NCBI GenBank assembly: GCA_000998425.1
Contig: LCDG01000003.1
Span: 1,619 to 65,618, forward strand
Direction of reading: 5' to 3'
DNA length: 64,000 nt
From: Candidatus Nomurabacteria bacterium GW2011_GWC2_42_20
GTDB lineage: Bacteria > Patescibacteriota > Minisyncoccia > Phycocordibacterales > UBA1550
Part shown: piece after piece, positions 44,477 through 50,759 of the stretch
Numbering within the stretch: position 1 is the first letter of the stretch
Layout of the letters: each line of letters starts with the position of its first letter
Translations under genes and position numbers: made by a program
The notes under the pieces: model-generated
Told to the model about the DNA's origin: nothing
The model's database searches: none
Seen by the model: only the letters and a program-made list of their open reading frames with translations

Positions 44477-44534
44477 AGGTTAAGTGTACCAAATTTATAG
44501 CAAACAGAATCATCGCATTGCCTGTTTTTGTTCA

Positions 44535-44544
44535 AAGCTGGGAG
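44535..44544. repeat. degenerate direct repeat of tRNA-Gln 3' end (candidate distal att site)
   Basis: aagctgggag is identical to 50686..50695 at the tRNA-Gln 3' end. The flanking ttgggacgaa resembles the T-arm ttggaatcgaa. Confidence 0.35.
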
Positions 44545-44601
44545 TTTGGGACGAAGTGGGAACTTTATTACTGATAAAAAACTTTCATATTGTTAATGCC
44601 A

Positions 44602-45705
44602 CTAGCTCTGATCCGGCCAGAATTCGATAATAAAATCATGTTTACTATACGGATATCCATCATATTCTTTTACAAAACCATTATTTTTTACACTTATTTT
44701 TGCCTTCATCAAACTTAACGCCTTTTTTACAATAAAAAGACCTATACCTGTTCCATCTTGAGCTATTCCTGACTTATCTTCTTTTGGCTTTTTAACATTT
44801 CTCCCTTGTCTATTTTCTAGAAATATTGTTTCTTTCTCGTCGTCCTCTATAGATACGCTAGTCATCGATAAAATTAATTTTTTAGATCTTGAAGATAGGT
44901 CAGCTGTAATTTCGATGTCAGTGTCGTGTAAAGCATACTTGCTGATATTGTCAAAAATTTGCCATATGACAGCGTTAAATAAACTGTGAACCACATTTAT
45001 TTTATTTAGTGAGGCTAAATCAGTATTTATATTAATATTTATTTCTATATTTTTTTTCCTCAGTTCATCAACAAAAGGATTAGTTAACCGATACATCGCC
45101 TTTTGAATATTTACAGGAAGAAATGAACCTGTACTATCAGCATACCCACCTATGATTCGAAGAGTTTCTATTTGTGCGTCTAAATCTATTGCCCTGTGAG
45201 ACATCTGACATACATCATTAGCAGCTATGTCTGTGTTTTCCTCAATTCTTCTTTTGACCTCATCCTTAAATTCTATATATGGACGTCCCCTGGCTTTGTC
45301 TGAGATGAGCCTATCAAAATTATCTTTAAATCTTCTTTGAAATTTAATTAGGTTGTGAGAAAATCTTCTTGTAACTGCGTCAAATGATTGCCTTTGACTT
45401 GTTGCAATTTGATTAAATTTAGGAATAAAACCTAAATAAATATTACATGATCTTTGAATCGACCTATTCCCTTGAAATAATTCGTGATCAGCTTTAACGA
45501 TTAAACGCACAGATCCGAGACTATTACTTCTGTATATATTTCGGTATCCTTTTTCAGTAAAATTATCATTTTGTGAAATACTAAACTTTTCTGGAAGTGT
45601 ATGGAGTTGCCCGTATCGTGCTACAACACTACCTTTTTCGTTTTGTAGTTCAAAAAATATTATTCCGTCATTATTATCGAGACTCATGAATTTTCTTTGC
45701 GGCAA
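44602..45705 (-). CDS. cytoplasmic histidine-kinase-like protein (GHKL ATPase)
   Basis: No TM helix. Candidate H-box FSHNLIKFQ, N-box-like WQIFDNISKYA, and G2 box GTGIGLFIVKKAL. Overlaps the receiver gene by 32 nt. Confidence 0.65.
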   Translation of the reverse strand: MPQRKFMSLDNNDGIIFFELQNEKGSVVARYGQLHTLPEKFSISQNDNFTEKGYRNIYRSNSLGSVRLIVKADHELFQGNRSIQRSCNIYLGFIPKFNQIATSQRQSFDAVTRRFSHNLIKFQRRFKDNFDRLISDKARGRPYIEFKDEVKRRIEENTDIAANDVCQMSHRAIDLDAQIETLRIIGGYADSTGSFLPVNIQKAMYRLTNPFVDELRKKNIEINININTDLASLNKINVVHSLFNAVIWQIFDNISKYALHDTDIEITADLSSRSKKLILSMTSVSIEDDEKETIFLENRQGRNVKKPKEDKSGIAQDGTGIGLFIVKKALSLMKAKISVKNNGFVKEYDGYPYSKHDFIIEFWPDQS

Positions 45706-46180
45706 CTTCTATCTGATCAACAAAAACAAAGGCGTCAGCGTGTTTATCAATCCAGGCATCAGCAATAGAATGAACCTCGCTTCCTGGGATATGCCCTGCG
45801 TATCCTGAACAAAAAATTATAAACTTCTCAGGGTATCTTTTTTTGATACTTTTAAGTAAGCCTATCCCACTCTCTTTTGGAGTTAAGACATTTCCAACTC
45901 CAACATAATCCATAAAGATAATGTCAGCACTTTTTATATCTTCAGCGTCAAAATTTATAACATCATTAATTTGATTAACATTCCAGCCAGCATTTCTAAT
46001 TGTCGACAGAGTAACACCAAAGTCTTCATCGTCTATAAATAAAATTTTGGTTATTTTTTTTATCTCTTCTATCGACAGTACTTTTTTACCTGAATATTTT
46101 GCTTTTATCCACTTTTCAGCCTTATCCATGCCAACAGTTGCCAATATTGTGCAAACTTTAGTTGCTATTGTTTCTATCAT
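45674..46180 (-). CDS. stand-alone receiver (REC) domain protein with 40-aa N-extension
   Basis: CheY-like strand pattern ILFIDDE (acidic pocket), IIFMDY (phospho-Asp), and IIFCSGY. No output domain. Confidence 0.6.
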   Translation of the reverse strand: MIETIATKVCTILATVGMDKAEKWIKAKYSGKKVLSIEEIKKITKILFIDDEDFGVTLSTIRNAGWNVNQINDVINFDAEDIKSADIIFMDYVGVGNVLTPKESGIGLLKSIKKRYPEKFIIFCSGYAGHIPGSEVHSIADAWIDKHADAFVFVDQIEVAAKKIHESR

Positions 46181-46293: not shown

Positions 46294-46788
46294 TTAAGGA
46301 GTAATTTTAGAATCGATCTGTGTTTTTAAATCCATTTCTTTTGGAATAGAGGTAATATGCAGAATAGGAATACCGCACTGGTTTAGTACTCTATCCACAA
46401 AGCCGTCACGAACCTGCCTCTCTGGTCTTTGGTGTGTGTAATCATCGAGTTCAATGACAAGAACAGGCGAAATATTTTGTTTATCGAAAAGCACAAAGTC
46501 TACTGATTTTTGGTCTATTTTATTTCTGTATCCACCCCTAAGAGAGCCTTTACCTTCAAGCATTACGATTTTATCAAGAGCAAGTTGTGGAAAAATGTAA
46601 TATTTACCATCAACAGCTCGTTCAAGAACACTCAAAAATTCTCGCTCTGCACGAGTAAGTAACCATGTCTTTTTTGAATACGGAAGCCATTCATCTTTTT
46701 CGTTTACCCTCCCACCTTTTCTCGTTAATTCGCCCACAACAAATCCAACAACCGCAACGATGACAGCAAATATAACAAGATTATTCAT
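46294..46788 (-). CDS. membrane-anchored DUF2726/NERD-like nuclease-fold protein
   Basis: N-terminal TM, then FLSVLERAV...FPQLALDKIV...KSVDFVLFDK...PVLVIELDDYTHQRPERQVRDGFVDRVLNQCGIPILH, the DUF2726 pattern. Confidence 0.55.
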   Translation of the reverse strand: MNNLVIFAVIVAVVGFVVGELTRKGGRVNEKDEWLPYSKKTWLLTRAEREFLSVLERAVDGKYYIFPQLALDKIVMLEGKGSLRGGYRNKIDQKSVDFVLFDKQNISPVLVIELDDYTHQRPERQVRDGFVDRVLNQCGIPILHITSIPKEMDLKTQIDSKITP

Positions 46789-47341
46789 GGTTAATATTAT
46801 CTAGAATTATTTTTGCTTCCGCAAGCAAATTTTTAGTTACGCTTAGGTTCCATGCTCGCATCGTGCTATGCCATTTCCGGTATTTAAGAAATTGCTCCCA
46901 TGTTAATTCGATTATTCTTTTAGGTTTATAATTCTTAAATATTTGCACAATAATTACATATTCAAATTTCTTTTCTAGCTGATTAATGTCATTATTATCT
47001 CCGCACCCATAAAATACACCAGTGGTAGTTCCTGGCTCCGAAACTGTTTTAATACTATACCTTTCTCCTTTGCGGCTTAACGCATCAACATTTTGAGTAC
47101 CTTCTGGTGCAGCTTGTAATTTTGACAAGCCAGCTATGAAATTATAAGTTTCTACCGCCAAAAATTCCCCTCTCTCGCCAACCATATTGTTTGTTCTTGC
47201 TAGGTTACGTCTCCTCAACTCTTGTTGGGTTTCACCGTAGTTTAGCCACAACTCCTCATTGTCTAATTGACCTAGATTTATTTTGTTCAAATCTTTATCA
47301 TGAGTAGAATTCTTCTCCTTTTTATTAGTTTCTATTCCCAT
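46781..47341 (-). CDS. hypothetical protein (possible PD-(D/E)xK-like fold)
   Basis: 186 aa; GERGEFLAVETYNF and VDALSRKGERYSIKT are faintly restriction-endonuclease-like. 8-nt overlap with the downstream DUF2726 gene indicates an operon. Confidence 0.4.
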   Translation of the reverse strand: MGIETNKKEKNSTHDKDLNKINLGQLDNEELWLNYGETQQELRRRNLARTNNMVGERGEFLAVETYNFIAGLSKLQAAPEGTQNVDALSRKGERYSIKTVSEPGTTTGVFYGCGDNNDINQLEKKFEYVIIVQIFKNYKPKRIIELTWEQFLKYRKWHSTMRAWNLSVTKNLLAEAKIILDNINHE

Positions 47342-47755
47342 AGCATTACTCTTACATATCCCATTTACTTAGTCCAGCAGAAAAGTGCCATCCTCAATAT
47401 CTTCTTGCTTGCAGAAACCGTATGATACATAATTTAACTATGCCTGCGGGCGAGAGTTTTTTCGACTGTCGATTACCTAAATTGAAGGCAGGCATAACAA
47501 AATAGCTCTCATAACTGAGGGCTTTTTTGCTGTCTAAAAACCGCAAAAATTCCTATATATCTAATGGATTTACATAGCGACCGCTTGCTATCATTAGCAA
47601 GTTAGTGTATTATCAAATTGTAGCTTGACGTCAGAAAATTTCTATCGGCTTGCTGCGGGCATCAATAAAACGATGTACCTATGAGCGAAATGACACATTG
47701 TGTCTGCCGTCGCTCCGAGCTACAAATATAAGCGTCACCTCAACGGGTGGCGCTT

Positions 47756-48208
47756 TTATTTTTTCTTCTTATTTTTCTTAAAATGAACTGAAATTATCTC
47801 AAGCTTCTCGTCTTGTAGTTCAAGGAGAACACGCAGTGACGGTTTCCCGACATGAGAGTAATCTTTTATATAGAAATGTTTTATGGGTGGCTCATATTCG
47901 TAAAAATCAAAATGAGTGATGGTTTCCTGCAGGTTATCTATAGCAAAAAATACAGCCGTCAAAGTCTGCTCTGCTGTGTGATTCTTGCTGAATTCTTTTT
48001 TGCGACTTTCAACAAAATGCTTCAAGGACTTGCGCGAAATATAAACTCTTATATTTTTATGAGGGTGACCTTTATGTTTAGACCCTCGAACGTCAAAGGC
48101 TCGTATTAGCTCAGTATGTTTTTCTATGAAGGATCCATGATCGAGATCGTAATACTCCCTCATTAGCTTTTTTATTTTATTTAATCTTCTTGGAATACTC
48201 GCTATCAT
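47756..48208 (-). CDS. hypothetical protein (lysine-rich C-terminus)
   Basis: 150-aa ORF in the island; no recognisable domain. Confidence 0.4.
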   Translation of the reverse strand: MIASIPRRLNKIKKLMREYYDLDHGSFIEKHTELIRAFDVRGSKHKGHPHKNIRVYISRKSLKHFVESRKKEFSKNHTAEQTLTAVFFAIDNLQETITHFDFYEYEPPIKHFYIKDYSHVGKPSLRVLLELQDEKLEIISVHFKKNKKKK

Positions 48209-48644
48209 AATTGCTCATATTACCATTTTTGACGCCTTGCAGGAATTTTCACGGTTTTGCGTCCATAACAGTGAAAAAGTACTCGAAAATACAACTTTTC
48301 ACGGTTATTACATTGAAGAAAAATTTTTGTTTACCATAATTTCAAAATATGATATATTAGAAGAGCTTGAAGCGTATCGAGTGTAGGCATGTGACGGCAT
48401 CACATGCGAAAAAATTCACTGCATTCTCTACCCCTTACTTCAAGGGGTGTTTCGAGTTTCAAATTCTCACAGGAACTCATCGAGGAAACAATTCAGTGCT
48501 TTAGAGAGGAGAATACTGAAGATATCTCTCCCGAAACCGCAAACGAGTATCTCAACTCGCTTTCGGGTTTTTTCCTTGCGCTTGCTGACAATCCATCCCC
48601 TCATCCAAAAGATGAGAACGGGGATGTTTGATGTACCTATATAA

Positions 48645-48692
48645 ATGCACGCTACTTTCTCGATCCTTAAGGGACGAGAAAGTAGCGTGCAT
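48645..48692. repeat. 48-bp near-perfect palindrome
   Basis: atgcacgctactttctcg (18) + atCCTTAAGGga + cgagaaagtagcgtgcat (18). Arms are perfect and the centre contains the ccttaagg palindrome. Confidence 0.7.
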
Positions 48693-48701
48693 AAGTCAAT
48701 T

Positions 48702-49178
48702 ATGAAAAAGAAGCAACCAAGTTATATAAAACTCTACCGTGCCGACCTTAGTGCCCCGCACATCAAGAACCTCTCTGATCGCGAGTTTAGGCTTTGGGTT
48801 GTCTTAAAAGTTCTTGCTGGTTGGGATCCACGACACGAGGAACACTTCATGGTCGTAAAAAGTTCAATCAGAGACTTGCAAGCGAGCCACCTTCCTACAT
48901 GGAAAAGTTCAGGAAAGTTTAGCTTAACGATTAACCAACTGATTGAGAAAGATATGATTAAGCGCATAGGTGTAGGGAAAATGAAACTTTTGAATCCTGC
49001 TCTACGAGAAGAACAAGATTTTCTTCTCAAGGAACAAAGTGTTCTTCTGGAAGAAAATCTTGTTTCGCAGAAAGAACGGGAACGGGTCAACGAAAAGCTT
49101 CAGGACATCAAAAACCTGCTTGCAAATAACGGTATTTTGAGAAAGCGCGAAAATAATATTCCGCCTAAAGAAATATAA
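48702..49178 (+). CDS. hypothetical DNA-binding (winged-helix-like) protein
   Basis: Start trimmed to the ATG at 48702, downstream of the palindrome. Basic, coiled-coil C-terminus. Sits immediately upstream of the recombinase. Confidence 0.35.
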   Translation: MKKKQPSYIKLYRADLSAPHIKNLSDREFRLWVVLKVLAGWDPRHEEHFMVVKSSIRDLQASHLPTWKSSGKFSLTINQLIEKDMIKRIGVGKMKLLNPALREEQDFLLKEQSVLLEENLVSQKERERVNEKLQDIKNLLANNGILRKRENNIPPKEI

Positions 49179-49239: not shown

Positions 49240-50718
49240 ATGAAATACATTATCTACTGTCGAAAATCCACGGAAAGCGAAGACAGACAACTTCTGTCAC
49301 TGGATGCCCAAGAACGGGAGCTTTTGGATATTGCTAATAAGCACAGCCTAGAAATTACAAAAGTTTTTCGCGAGAGCATGTCTGCCAAAGCACCTGGTCG
49401 CCCTATCTTTGACGAGATGATGAAAATCATTGAAAAAGGAAGAGCAGATGCTATCCTCTGTTGGAAAATTGATCGTCTCACGCGTAATCCTGTTGATGGC
49501 GGAAAAATTCAGTGGCTCCTGCAAACGAACAAGATAAAGTGCATTCAGACTTTCGAGAAAAGCTACTTCCCTAATGACAATGTTCTGCTCATGAGTATCG
49601 AGCAAGCAATGGCGAATCAATACATTCGAGACTTGAGCGTGAATGTAAAGCGTGGGCTACGAGAAAAATTGCTTCGTGGAGAATGGCCAAACAAGGCACC
49701 TTTTGGATATACAAACGACAAGGGGTCTAAGTTTGTCATTCCTGATCCTGTTCGTTCAAAATATGTTTCTCGTGCTTTTGAAATCTACCTCACGGGCTCA
49801 CATGGCACAAAAGATATTTCAGAAATTCTTTACAAGGAGGGTTTACGCACGGCTACAGGAAAGAAAATTTTGAAGGGGCGCATTCATAGCATTCTTTCCT
49901 CAATTTTCTACACGGGCATCATGGAAAAAGAAGGAAAATATTATGAAGGCAAACATAAGCCACTCATCTCAAAAGAAACTTTTGAGAAAGCTCAAGATCT
50001 TATGCACGGCCGTTCACGACCCCGCCCACAACGATTATTCTTCCCTCTTCGTGGCTTTCTCAAGTGTGAAAATTGCGGATGCGCCCTCACTGCATCTCTC
50101 AAAAAAGGTCATCACTATTACTACTGCACGGGAAACAGAGACTTTTGCAATGAACACAAAAGCTACATGCGAGAGGTGTACCTATATGAGAAAGTTTCTG
50201 CTGTCCTCGAATCAATTCATTTTTCAGAACGCAAGATCGAGATTATGTATCAGGCGGCCAAGGAGAGACTCGAGTTTGATAATGGGTACAACAACCAGAC
50301 TATATCCACCCTCCAAAACCATTTAAAATCGCTTGAGACGAAAGAATCCCTTTTGCTCGACACTTTCCTCGCTGAACAGATTACAAAGGATTTATACGAC
50401 GCTAAAATCCTCGCTTTGCGTAATGAGCGAGTTCAAGTTACCAAGCAACTCAAAGAAGCCGAATCACGACAACCTGTCGCGCTGTTGGAACCTACCAAAA
50501 ATGCTTTTTTAACCGCTAGTAGAGCCTCAAAAGAGTTTTTAGAAGGCGACGATTTGAAGAAAAGAAATATCCTAGAAAGTCTCTGTTGGAACCTTTCGCT
50601 CAAAGAGAAAAATATCCATACAGTGTCGCTCAAAAGTCCTTTCGACATCATGTCAAAAGCATCGAAAAATGACGGTTTGTGCACTAAGCTGGGAGGCTTG
50701 GAATCGAACCAAGATTGA
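49240..50718 (+). CDS. large serine recombinase
   Basis: Resolvase catalytic domain with Ser in YCRKSTESEDRQ, DRLTRN motif, recombinase domain, and zinc ribbon (CENCGC...YYYCTG). The C-terminus overlaps the tRNA-Gln 3' end. Confidence 0.9.
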   Translation: MKYIIYCRKSTESEDRQLLSLDAQERELLDIANKHSLEITKVFRESMSAKAPGRPIFDEMMKIIEKGRADAILCWKIDRLTRNPVDGGKIQWLLQTNKIKCIQTFEKSYFPNDNVLLMSIEQAMANQYIRDLSVNVKRGLREKLLRGEWPNKAPFGYTNDKGSKFVIPDPVRSKYVSRAFEIYLTGSHGTKDISEILYKEGLRTATGKKILKGRIHSILSSIFYTGIMEKEGKYYEGKHKPLISKETFEKAQDLMHGRSRPRPQRLFFPLRGFLKCENCGCALTASLKKGHHYYYCTGNRDFCNEHKSYMREVYLYEKVSAVLESIHFSERKIEIMYQAAKERLEFDNGYNNQTISTLQNHLKSLETKESLLLDTFLAEQITKDLYDAKILALRNERVQVTKQLKEAESRQPVALLEPTKNAFLTASRASKEFLEGDDLKKRNILESLCWNLSLKEKNIHTVSLKSPFDIMSKASKNDGLCTKLGGLESNQD

Positions 50719-50759
50719 CGGCTTCAAAGGCCGCTGTCCTACCATTAGACGATCTCCCA
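50689..50759 (-). tRNA. tRNA-Gln (UUG)
   Basis: Hand-folded cloverleaf: U1-A72 first pair as in bacterial tRNA-Gln, D-arm GUCU/AAUGGUA/GGAC, anticodon stem GCGGC/GCCGU with loop CUUUGAA, T-arm CUUGG UUCGAUU CCAAG, discriminator G; CCA not encoded. Confidence 0.85.

Follow-up and report, generated by a model that had tools for sequence, protein, structure and literature searches.

A BisI-family restriction endonuclease gene next to a predicted membrane-anchored DUF2726 gene on a putative tRNA-Gln integrative element of a Parcubacteria genome

Two overlapping genes in a Parcubacteria (CPR) genome encode a 186-aa protein and a small protein that combines an N-terminal membrane helix with a nuclease-like core. 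Do they form a dedicated two-gene system? A first-pass annotation left the 186-aa protein unnamed and suggested that the pair, lying inside a mobile island, has the shape of a phage-defence or toxin module. We examined both proteins, the element that carries them and the neighbourhoods of their homologues; the window referred to below is the whole 64-kb stretch of DNA that was analysed.

The gene pair and its element

The features of the locus are collected in Table 1. The coordinates and anatomy of the pair in the first-pass annotation were right, with the minus strand left unstated, and the 8-nt overlap that it described is borne out by the sequence: the plus strand at 46781-46788 reads ttattcat and the minus strand reads ATGAATAA, which holds the stop codon TAA of the first gene and the start codon ATG of the second. 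Conservation marks both ORFs as real genes, including the 186-aa ORF for which this had been in question: it has 672 homologues, with a mean column identity of 64% in a 27-sequence sample, and the 164-aa protein has 126. The true start of the 186-aa ORF may be internal, giving a protein of ~169 aa, because most homologues begin at a position matching codon 18-20 and there is a TTG at 47290. The two genes are probably co-transcribed. The overlap had been taken as a sign of coupling, a reading that it does not support, because overlaps between neighbours are frequent in this compact genome, one example being the PDC-M43A-like and PDC-M43B-like genes.

Table 1 Features of the element and the gene pair (positions in the window)
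Feature	Position	Strand	Description	Basis
Left repeat	44519..44551	.	Imperfect copy of the region at the 3' end of tRNA-Gln; partner 50670-50702, shared core AAGCTGGGAG	73% identity
PDC-M43B-like gene	44602..45705	-	367 aa, overlaps M43A	PADLOC PDLC04647 E=2.2e-29; Pfam HATPase_c E=1.1e-6
PDC-M43A-like gene	45674..46180	-	Receiver-like, 168 aa	PADLOC PDLC04646 E=1.7e-28
DUF2726 gene	46294..46788	-	164 aa, predicted membrane-anchored nuclease-fold protein	
DUF2726 domain	46315..46662	-	Predicted catalytic; residues 43-158, motif VDF...IELDDxxH	
TM anchor of DUF2726 protein	46723..46779	-	N-terminal, residues ~4-22, predicted N-out/C-in	
8-nt overlap	46781..46788	-	REase-gene stop and DUF2726-gene start	Direct sequence reading
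REase gene	46781..47341	-	186 aa, BisI-family (Type IIM, putatively m5C-dependent) restriction endonuclease	
orf150	47756..48208	-	Element-specific; hairpin 47730-47755 after stop	
F3	48404..48631	+	75 aa, small conserved backbone gene of the serine-recombinase element family	
orf177	48645..49178	+	Position of G2P-type rolling-circle Rep in related elements	Positional comparison
Large serine recombinase	49240..50718	+	492 aa; 3' end overlaps tRNA-Gln	Resolvase+Recombinase+Zn_ribbon_recom
tRNA-Gln(TTG)	50688..50759	-	Integration target, right edge	ARAGORN; Rfam tRNA 58.6 bits

The mobile-island context had been recognised correctly. GC content is 0.35-0.36 in the island versus ~0.42 outside, with a drop at 44-48 kb, and a large serine recombinase gene and tRNA-Gln lie together at one edge. 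The repeat at the opposite edge is probably the left att site, which would give an element of about 6.15-6.2 kb. The recombinase shares 76% identity with its counterpart at comparison locus L104 and 41-56% with those at L016, L033, L038 and L106, and homologues of F3 adjoin DUF2726, Rep or recombinase genes at L016, L025, L033, L040, L050, L104, L106 and L107. CPR bacteria harbour such serine-recombinase/G2P-Rep integrative elements as a family, ~6-7 kb in size, which shuttle defence cargo. The product of orf177 gave only a weak match to phage_O_Nterm (E=0.04), and orf150 had no family matches and no homologue in any comparison locus; given the hairpin after its stop, orf150 is probably transcribed as a unit of its own. 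Scanning the locus with Rfam and for promoters and terminators returned only the tRNA and consensus matches at chance level.

Next to the pair, 113 nt downstream of the DUF2726 gene, begin the PDC-M43A-like gene and its overlapping partner, which together make a candidate defence pair by their PADLOC profile matches; a literature search found no publications on PDC-M43. One contig of 6427 bp (L003) spans the element interval alone. We considered it as a circular form of the element and rejected this; since its ends do not overlap and it runs collinear with the chromosome, it probably reflects an assembly break at a polymorphic island.

Identity of the 186-aa protein

The faint restriction-endonuclease signature noticed earlier in the 186-aa protein held up, and the protein proved nameable. 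It matches the PADLOC profile mREase_II (PDLC03205) at E=1.6e-55, and in BLASTP comparisons with sequences taken from the supplement of PMC8281217 it shares, along its full length, 44% identity and 67% positives over 159 aa with EsaTMI (E 6e-50) and 44% identity with EsaGBI (E 3e-38), both of which are BisI-type m5C-dependent (Type IIM) endonucleases with activity shown by experiment (PMC8281217). A phmmer search of the PDB with the single sequence found Eco15I marginally (E 1.4), so the family profile, a fold search and the literature sequences were needed to place the protein. The family profile reached Eco15I at E=0.0013, and a Foldseek search with the AlphaFold model, which is of moderate confidence only (pLDDT 70, pTM 0.64), returned Eco15I_Ntd/NhoI as the top 11 PDB matches (E 4e-7 to 7e-5, TM 0.35-0.55), followed by PvuII. 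The remote-homology and structure checks suggested in the first-pass annotation thus bear out a nuclease fold, and the model, like NhoI and Eco15I, shows a PvuII-like PD-(D/E)xK fold preceded by a dimerisation helix. NCBIfam and PHROGs held nothing informative for either this or the 164-aa protein. By homology, the 186-aa protein is clearly a BisI-family Type IIM restriction endonuclease.

Residues E59, D86 and K98 do not vary among 27 homologues, and S96-I-K98 as a whole is invariant or nearly so. The third catalytic position is S96 (SIK) rather than Q; active EsaTMI has SIK and EsaGBI has AIK, so the motif takes the form found in active members and not the QxK form of NhoI and Eco15I. The spacing E...D-X9-SxK is identical in EsaTMI, and a C-terminal block, WH(T/S)TM..W, is common to the 186-aa protein, EsaTMI and EsaGBI (WHxTM..W as conserved in the subgroup described next). 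The likely equivalent of the (H/R)(V/I/T/M) methyl-pocket dipeptide is H158-S159 within WHSTM, mapped to H139-V140 of NhoI by spacing only; its histidine is invariant, and the second residue is S, T, K, R or L among homologues and T in EsaTMI. In its size range (150-190 aa), solitary occurrence and location on a mobile element, the protein resembles the BisI/Bce95I/EsaTMI subgroup (PMC4926085, PMC8281217, PMC11347163), and it likewise places an N-terminal dimerisation-type helix before the PD-(D/E)xK core. It departs from the family in its possible 18-residue N-terminal extension, in the Ser rather than V/I/T/M at the second position of the methyl-pocket dipeptide, and in its CPR/Patescibacteria host, a 2024 structural paper having found the family most enriched in Pseudomonadota. 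BisI-type methyl-directed endonucleases are very common in CPR/Patescibacteria and highly conserved there, which bears on the question of their natural target raised in PMC11347163.

A classical Type II restriction-modification (R-M) system would place a cognate methyltransferase next to the endonuclease gene, and none is present in the element or the window: tblastn found no C5 methyltransferase homologue in the 64 kb, nor was there an ORF with DPPY or C5 methyltransferase motifs, leaving both C5 and N6 types undetected. Among 12 loci with BisI-like homologues, a methyltransferase was absent within 6 kb in seven; in three (L004, L009, L013) a co-oriented C5 methyltransferase gene lies 27-44 nt downstream of the BisI-like gene, and at L006 and L014 the nearby methyltransferase has its own REase. 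BisI-like homologues also occur in defence islands, some of them beside complete R-M systems with their own REase (RE_LlaMI, RE_HpaII). The three loci with a methyltransferase directly downstream prompted us to ask whether the gene is the R component of a classical R-M pair. We rejected this as the main reading because the protein is 44% identical to methyl-dependent enzymes, the gene stands alone here and at most loci, and other REases accompany the methyltransferases at L006 and L014.

That the protein is a conventional methylation-sensitive Type IIP enzyme with its methyltransferase elsewhere, or an inactive relic, and in either case without modification-dependent activity, we consider very improbable. 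The same three loci could be cited for it, as could the Ser in place of Q/E in the (D/E/Q)xK motif and the rank of PvuII, a Type IIP enzyme, as the nearest non-BisI fold with the same D-X9-(E/S)xK spacing. PvuII, however, is methylation-sensitive and always found with M.PvuII, whereas the 186-aa protein is without a methyltransferase and its sequence similarity to PvuII is far below that to BisI-type enzymes. The enzymes 44% identical to it require m5C and carry the same SIK/AIK motif, the Q72A variant of Pam7902I keeps partial activity (PMC8281217), and the 64% mean column identity reflects strong purifying conservation. BisI itself adjoins a dead C5 methyltransferase (PMC4926085). We infer the m5C-dependence of the CPR subfamily from the 44%-identical enzymes, and hold it short of proven because in three of 12 genomes the close homologue immediately precedes a C5 methyltransferase gene. 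On this reading the enzyme would be a small, PvuII-like PD-(D/E)xK homodimer that cuts DNA at a short site carrying several 5-methylcytosines (the site is GCNGC for characterised relatives); with cleavage limited to such multiply methylated DNA it would need no companion methyltransferase, and it could restrict m5C-modified phage or plasmid DNA.

The DUF2726 protein and its genomic contexts

The description of the downstream protein as a membrane-anchored DUF2726 protein agrees with our results. Pfam PF10881 matches residues 43-158 at E=9.4e-27 and 93.7 bits (cut-off 24.7 bits), and the AlphaFold model (pLDDT 92) shows an alpha-beta-beta-beta-alpha core behind a hydrophobic N-terminal helix at residues 2-24. 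The Kyte-Doolittle maximum of 2.64 falls at residues 4-22, and the best-scoring hydrophobic segment is N-terminal in 33 of 34 aligned DUF2726 sequences; mean K+R counts in the 34 relatives are 0.41 before the TM segment versus 3.5 after it, which by the positive-inside rule predicts an N-out/C-in orientation. Residues D97, E113, D115, D116, H119, R124, R127 and D128 are invariant in the 34. Fold matches of the model were weak and confined to PD-(D/E)xK nucleases (BstEII, TnsA, 3ijm, Bax1), and with the Eco15I/NhoI matches of the 186-aa protein they uphold the earlier view that both proteins have a nuclease fold. Matches to DUF559 (E 0.08) and MTES_1575 (E 0.011) were sub-threshold, and PADLOC had no match.

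DUF2726 belongs to the Vsr/DUF559/DUF2726 group of PD-(D/E)xK phosphodiesterases, and its association with mobile elements has been noted (PMC3424549, Steczkiewicz et al. 2012). The 164-aa protein shares with DUF2726 the VDF...IELDDxxH motif and that association, and differs in the conserved N-terminal membrane anchor added in this subfamily. It is unlike the Vsr T/G mismatch endonuclease in having only sub-threshold Vsr-family matches and, by tblastn of the 64-kb window, no C5 methyltransferase. We predict from the model and alignment a Vsr/DUF559-like PD-(D/E)xK nuclease-fold domain, with D97, E113-x-D115 and H119 as its motif, behind a conserved single-pass anchor.

The neighbourhoods of its homologues are varied. 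Close homologues adjoin a serine recombinase, a REP_ORF2-G2P/Phage_CRI Rep or F3 at L016, L025, L033, L038, L040, L049, L050, L104, L106 and L107. Of 72 viral loci, 54 have a gene from one family, of which the member at L110 was tested and is Zot; confirmation of a secretin (L119) and of G2P/Rep_trans replication genes came from two of these loci. At L110 and L119 the DUF2726 gene takes the same place, following the morphogenesis module, and DUF2726 is present in seven Vibrio filamentous phages. At L020, L045, L054, L066 and L088 it instead closes R-M operons or lies within defence islands. Clustering of neighbours at 79 loci, and a Pfam comparison of 46 tight same-strand neighbours, revealed no dominant operon partner. 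DUF2726 is thus a promiscuous accessory gene of mobile elements, found in CPR serine-recombinase/G2P-Rep elements, in filamentous prophages and at the 3' ends of restriction operons.

From these contexts one might instead read DUF2726 as a backbone or life-cycle gene of rolling-circle or filamentous elements, with no part in host defence and with the BisI-type gene inserted beside it; it might then help to process the element's DNA at the membrane, keep out sibling elements that superinfect, or act on the host by manipulating it. The repeated linkage to serine recombinase, G2P-type Rep and F3 in CPR elements, the fixed position in inovirus-like prophages and the weak fold similarity to TnsA would fit. 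We nevertheless find this quite unlikely, since no recombinase or Rep gene was detected around 73 of 80 metagenome DUF2726 loci (1-10 kb around each) and several copies sit at the ends of R-M operons or in defence islands. It also overlaps with a defence role, because superinfection exclusion is itself a defence-type function.

As its most likely role, we suggest that the DUF2726 protein is a membrane-tethered entry nuclease; held at the inner face of the membrane, it would attack foreign DNA on entry and be kept off the chromosome. We infer this role purely by analogy, because a literature search found no characterised DUF2726 member and no reported biochemical activity. The analogue is SNIPE, a membrane-bound nuclease that cleaves phage DNA at injection and offers a precedent for tethering as self-protection (PMC13190303). 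Both would have a short periplasmic N-terminus, one TM helix and a cytoplasmic nuclease, both are single genes found in defence islands or on mobile elements, and in both tethering plausibly spares the chromosome. There is no homology, however: SNIPE combines DUF4041 with GIY-YIG and is about three times larger, whereas the 164-aa protein is PD-(D/E)xK DUF2726 only. Because Pfam finds DUF2726 alone and PADLOC nothing, the protein is not a SNIPE member and at most a functional analogue. A conserved N-out/C-in anchor that recurs in filamentous prophages and CPR elements makes these proteins candidates for membrane-localised exclusion nucleases.

Relationship between the two genes

The proposal that the pair is a two-gene defence or toxin module came with the suggestion to look for co-occurrence across genomes, and this went against it. 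No DUF2726 gene lay within 6 kb at any of 12 genome loci with BisI-like genes 70-86% identical to the one here, and no BisI-like gene was found at 80 metagenome or at 72 viral DUF2726 loci. The only other co-occurrence was on a short contig (L023), where BisI-like and DUF2726 genes are adjacent, 17 nt apart and in reversed order. Among longer BisI-like homologues there were no DUF2726 fusions; one is a TM+NERD fusion, and others have unannotated extensions at the C-terminus. The BisI-like and DUF2726 genes are neighbours on a small element and not a conserved two-gene system.

A true two-component system, in which the BisI-type enzyme cuts methylated invader DNA, DUF2726 serves as a second effector or localiser and translational coupling sets their stoichiometry, is therefore unlikely in our judgement. 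The 8-nt overlap, L023, a TM-DUF2726 gene with a 4-nt overlap with a DpnI-family Type IIM gene (L088) and a single database protein or cluster in which a TM segment and a NERD domain are joined to a BisI-like domain (P0363) mean that Type IIM enzymes and a membrane nuclease might still be functionally linked, and BisI homologues on mobile elements can carry an extra domain, as in Eco15I (PMC4926085). Besides the three independent locus sets, however, gene order differs between the two co-occurrences, DUF2726 adjoins many unrelated genes, NERD differs from DUF2726 and its fusion is known from that one cluster, and characterised BisI enzymes act alone in vitro (PMC4926085, PMC8281217). Eco15I resembles our locus in joining a BisI-type nuclease to a second module on mobile elements, but its extra C-terminal domain is fused and dispensable for methyl-dependent cleavage, whereas the neighbour here is a membrane protein encoded on its own and belongs to another fold family.

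We consider it reasonably probable that the REase and DUF2726 genes, side by side in the cargo region, are two separate nuclease genes carried by a tRNA-Gln serine-recombinase element, where with PDC-M43 they would form a mini defence island rather than an obligate two-component system. It is not a new two-gene defence system, because the BisI-type family has already been characterised by biochemistry and structure and the pairing is not conserved; our verdict is a small defence island in which the enzyme family is a known one and the other domain an established domain of unknown function.

A wider idea, to which we give limited credence, is that small TM-anchored DUF2726 proteins constitute a minimal and widespread class of entry nucleases, SNIPE-like in function but with a Vsr-like PD-(D/E)xK fold, cooperating with a methyl-directed enzyme here and at L088. 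If so, such proteins would degrade DNA during its passage across the membrane, and their carriers would be filamentous phages, CPR rolling-circle/serine-recombinase elements and restriction operons.

BisI-family identity of the upstream protein

At this locus a small integrative element carries genes for a BisI-family Type IIM enzyme, a restriction enzyme cutting only methylated DNA, and for a DUF2726 protein, together with those of PDC-M43, a candidate system in PADLOC. The first-pass annotation had described a novel two-gene system that could not be named; the two genes were correctly observed, but that reading of them is supported only in part. Both open reading frames (ORFs) lie exactly where they had been annotated (see table), and the sequence gives an 8-nt overlap between the stop of the BisI-type gene and the start of the DUF2726 gene (plus-strand 46781-46788, ttattcat; coding strand ATGAATAA). 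Both are real genes, the 186-aa ORF having 672 database homologues (mean column identity 64% among 27 sampled sequences), nearly all from Paceibacteria/Parcubacteria metagenome bins, and the 164-aa ORF 126; proteins identical to both are recorded from Parcubacteria group bacterium GW2011_GWC1_42_11. The N-terminal 17 residues of the 186-aa protein may not be translated, because most homologues begin at the position corresponding to residue 18-20, which in the window is a TTG codon (47290); a purine-rich stretch is better placed for the ATG than for this TTG.

Coordinates of features in the window and of comparison loci
Feature	Position	Strand	Remark
Imperfect copy of tRNA 3' region	44519-44551		core AAGCTGGGAG
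PDC-M43A and PDC-M43B	44602-46180	-	overlapping; PADLOC; immediately downstream of the pair; HATPase-type gene with partner
DUF2726 ORF	46294..46788	-	164 aa
BisI-type ORF	46781..47341	-	186 aa
Hairpin 1	47504-47523		
Palindrome	~47586-47601		TTGCTAATGATAGCAA; intergenic, upstream of BisI-type gene
Hairpin 2	47730-47755		directly after the orf150 stop
F3	48404-48631	+	
tRNA-Gln	50688-50759	-	right edge of element
HATPase-type gene with partner, L104	3566-4968		
HATPase-type gene with partner, L059	3846-4916		

The PADLOC model mREase_II (PDLC03205; Type II methyl-directed restriction enzymes) matches the 186-aa protein end to end (E=1.6e-55), as do three sister models, and a search of the PDB with the family profile returned Eco15I (E=0.0013). 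The best PDB fold matches of its AlphaFold model (pLDDT 70) were eleven Eco15I_Ntd and NhoI chains, then PvuII and DpnI, the same order of relatedness as in a structural paper on the family (PMC11347163). [quoted passage not shown] The protein once called unknown and unnameable is thus a BisI-family Type IIM enzyme, and the faint restriction-endonuclease signature noticed at first pass proved genuine, with E59 (in the first core helix), D86 and S96-I-K98 lining up with the BisI catalytic residues. Where NhoI and Eco15I carry the Gln of QxK, the window protein has Ser, which is no defect, since the motif is also SIK in EsaTMI and AIK in EsaGBI, and Pam7902I stays partially active with the Q72A mutation (PMC8281217). 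A C-terminal block, WHSTMRAWN in the window versus WHTTMNAWN in EsaTMI, is probably the site of the (H/R)(V/I/T/M) methyl-pocket dipeptide; in this candidate dipeptide the His is invariant and the second residue is Ser.

Homology and context point to methyl-dependence of the 186-aa protein. By comparison with characterized relatives, it would form a homodimer and cleave inside short m5C-rich sites, with no base flipping, restricting DNA that arrives already methylated. The 64-kb window contains no C5 methyltransferase homologue and no ORF with a DPPY-type or C5-type motif, and no methyltransferase was found within 6 kb in seven of the twelve GTDB genomes with 70-86% identical BisI-like proteins. 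A C5 methyltransferase does stand beside some homologues, which keeps alive the minority reading that some family members are conventional R subunits; at two such loci (L006 and L014) the nearby methyltransferase has its own restriction enzyme, RE_LlaMI and RE_HpaII, respectively. Such an arrangement has a precedent within the family, because BisI itself adjoins a dead C5 methyltransferase (PMC4926085). Other neighbours of the homologues, namely DUF4238, an SLFN-type helicase with GIY-YIG and S24 domains, and AAA_21, are typical defence-island content.

The BisI-like subfamily of Paceibacteria/Parcubacteria stands out for its great abundance (672 clusters) and unusually high conservation (at least 67% identity for each of the top 120); a 2024 structural paper describes the BisI family as most enriched in Pseudomonadota (PMC11347163). 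Two BisI-like homologues (P0250 and P0257) share a C-terminal extension of ~200 aa with no Pfam match.

The membrane-anchored DUF2726 protein

The downstream protein had been read as a membrane-anchored protein with a DUF2726 nuclease fold, and the analysis supports this. Pfam DUF2726 matches it with E=9.4e-27. In its confident AlphaFold model (pLDDT 92) an N-terminal helix (residues 2-24) is joined through a linker to an alpha/beta core. Foldseek returned weak matches only, all of them PD-(D/E)xK nucleases (BstEII, TnsA, a structural-genomics REase-like protein, Bax1 and FAN1). Residues D97, E113, D115, D116, H119, R124, R127 and D128 are invariant in 34 relatives and make up the VDF...IELDDxxH pattern by which a published classification groups DUF2726 with Vsr and DUF559 (PMC3424549); our literature search found no characterized member. 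The best-scoring hydrophobic segment is N-terminal in 33 of the 34 aligned sequences, flanked by a mean of 0.41 K+R on its N-terminal side versus 3.5 on its C-terminal side, so that by the positive-inside rule the nuclease-fold domain is predicted to be cytoplasmic and membrane-tethered.

The closest DUF2726 homologues are linked to a family of small elements with three building blocks: a large serine recombinase, the small conserved gene F3 and a rolling-circle Rep of the G2P type (REP_ORF2-G2P or Phage_CRI). At least one of these three stands beside DUF2726 at L016, L025, L033, L038, L040, L049, L050, L104, L106 and L107; the L104 recombinase is 76% identical to that of the window, and the cargo varies, L107 carrying an AbiLi-like ATPase. 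F3-type genes (51-83 aa, with a conserved 'LSPE.ANEYLNSL' block), found at all these loci except L038 and L049, are constant companions of recombinase, Rep and DUF2726 in CPR elements of ~6-7 kb.

Filamentous prophages carry TM-DUF2726 relatives of lower similarity (25-41% identity) as accessory genes. Of 72 viral loci, 54 have a gene from the family whose tested member, in L110, is Zot (pI). Pfam confirms a secretin for L119 and, for both L119 and L110, replication genes of the G2P/Rep_trans kind; at several loci the sequence also shows apparent pVIII-like coat genes. TM-anchored DUF2726 is common in inovirus-like prophages among the IMG/VR contigs (L108-L179), and in L110 (4992-5552) and L119 (4764-5432) the gene directly follows the morphogenesis module. 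Among named phages, a homologue was found only in seven Vibrio filamentous phages, under the annotation 'hypothetical'. In addition, Type III-like R-M operons (L045, L054 and L066) have a DUF2726 gene at their 3' end, and L020 has one in an island with GmrSD. DUF2726 is therefore promiscuous, moving with mobile elements and defence islands alike, and the membrane-anchored family itself is the part worth following.

That the gene is enriched on filamentous phages and rolling-circle elements suggests that it was selected for keeping out competitor DNA as it comes in; a part in the life cycle of the element itself is a less probable, though live, alternative. The protein may be an active nuclease that attacks DNA on the cytoplasmic side of the membrane, where the tether would keep it off the chromosome, by analogy with SNIPE, a GIY-YIG protein unrelated to DUF2726 for which tethering has been demonstrated to spare the chromosome (PMC13190303).

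Pairing of the two genes

The suggestion that the pair forms a two-gene module failed the co-occurrence check: a DUF2726 gene was found within 6 kb at 0/12 genome loci with close BisI-like genes, and a BisI-like gene at 0/80 metagenomic and 0/72 viral-contig loci with DUF2726. Clustering the neighbours of 79 DUF2726 genes and comparing 46 tight same-strand neighbours with Pfam revealed no dominant partner. The pair is not a module, and on these counts a functional link between the two proteins is unlikely. Two observations nonetheless speak for it. In L088 (852-2140) the ends of a TM-DUF2726 gene and a complete gene of the DpnI family (Pfam DpnI, E 6.8e-80) share 4 nt, so that a second kind of methyl-directed enzyme (Type IIM, of the Gm6ATC-dependent type) is tightly coupled to DUF2726, and a single-cluster fusion from the representatives search (P0363, 262 aa) joins an N-terminal TM segment and a partial NERD domain to a BisI-like domain. 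The DUF2726 and BisI-like families also meet on a 1761-bp contig (L023), in the opposite order to the window: a 75%-identical DUF2726 gene, 17 nt, then an 85%-identical BisI-like gene.

The integrative element and its neighbours

GC content is 0.35-0.36 at 44-48 kb versus ~0.42 elsewhere. The large serine recombinase ORF overlaps the tRNA-Gln on the opposite strand by 31 nt (the two together span 49240-50759), so its C-terminus is coded across the presumed attachment site and would change upon excision. The copy of the tRNA 3' region at the other end gives an element of ~6.15 kb, with the gene order PDC-M43B, PDC-M43A, DUF2726, BisI-type gene, orf150, F3, orf177 and recombinase; where other elements of the family have Rep, the window has an ORF of 177 aa unrelated to it. 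The att sites are placed only approximately, as no empty site was found. A 6427-bp metagenome contig from three samples (L003) spans just the element interval and has no terminal overlap, which fits a break in the assembly where the island is polymorphic.

M43A is receiver-like (PADLOC E 1.7e-28) and M43B a HATPase_c protein (PADLOC E 2.2e-29); our literature search found nothing on PDC-M43. A HATPase-type protein with a small STAS-like (DUF4325) or receiver-like partner stands beside DUF2726 at three loci, but the proteins of one locus have no detectable sequence similarity to those of another.

Upstream of the BisI-type gene lie 414 intergenic nt (47342-47755) with two G+C-rich hairpins and no match to any Rfam family. 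Other assemblies of the locus (L001, L002 and L003) are identical to the window up to 50786 and differ from 50787, L001 and L002 by a 34-bp insertion and L003 by divergence over the first 42 nt; this divergence, just upstream of the tRNA-Gln, suggests strain variation at the element border.
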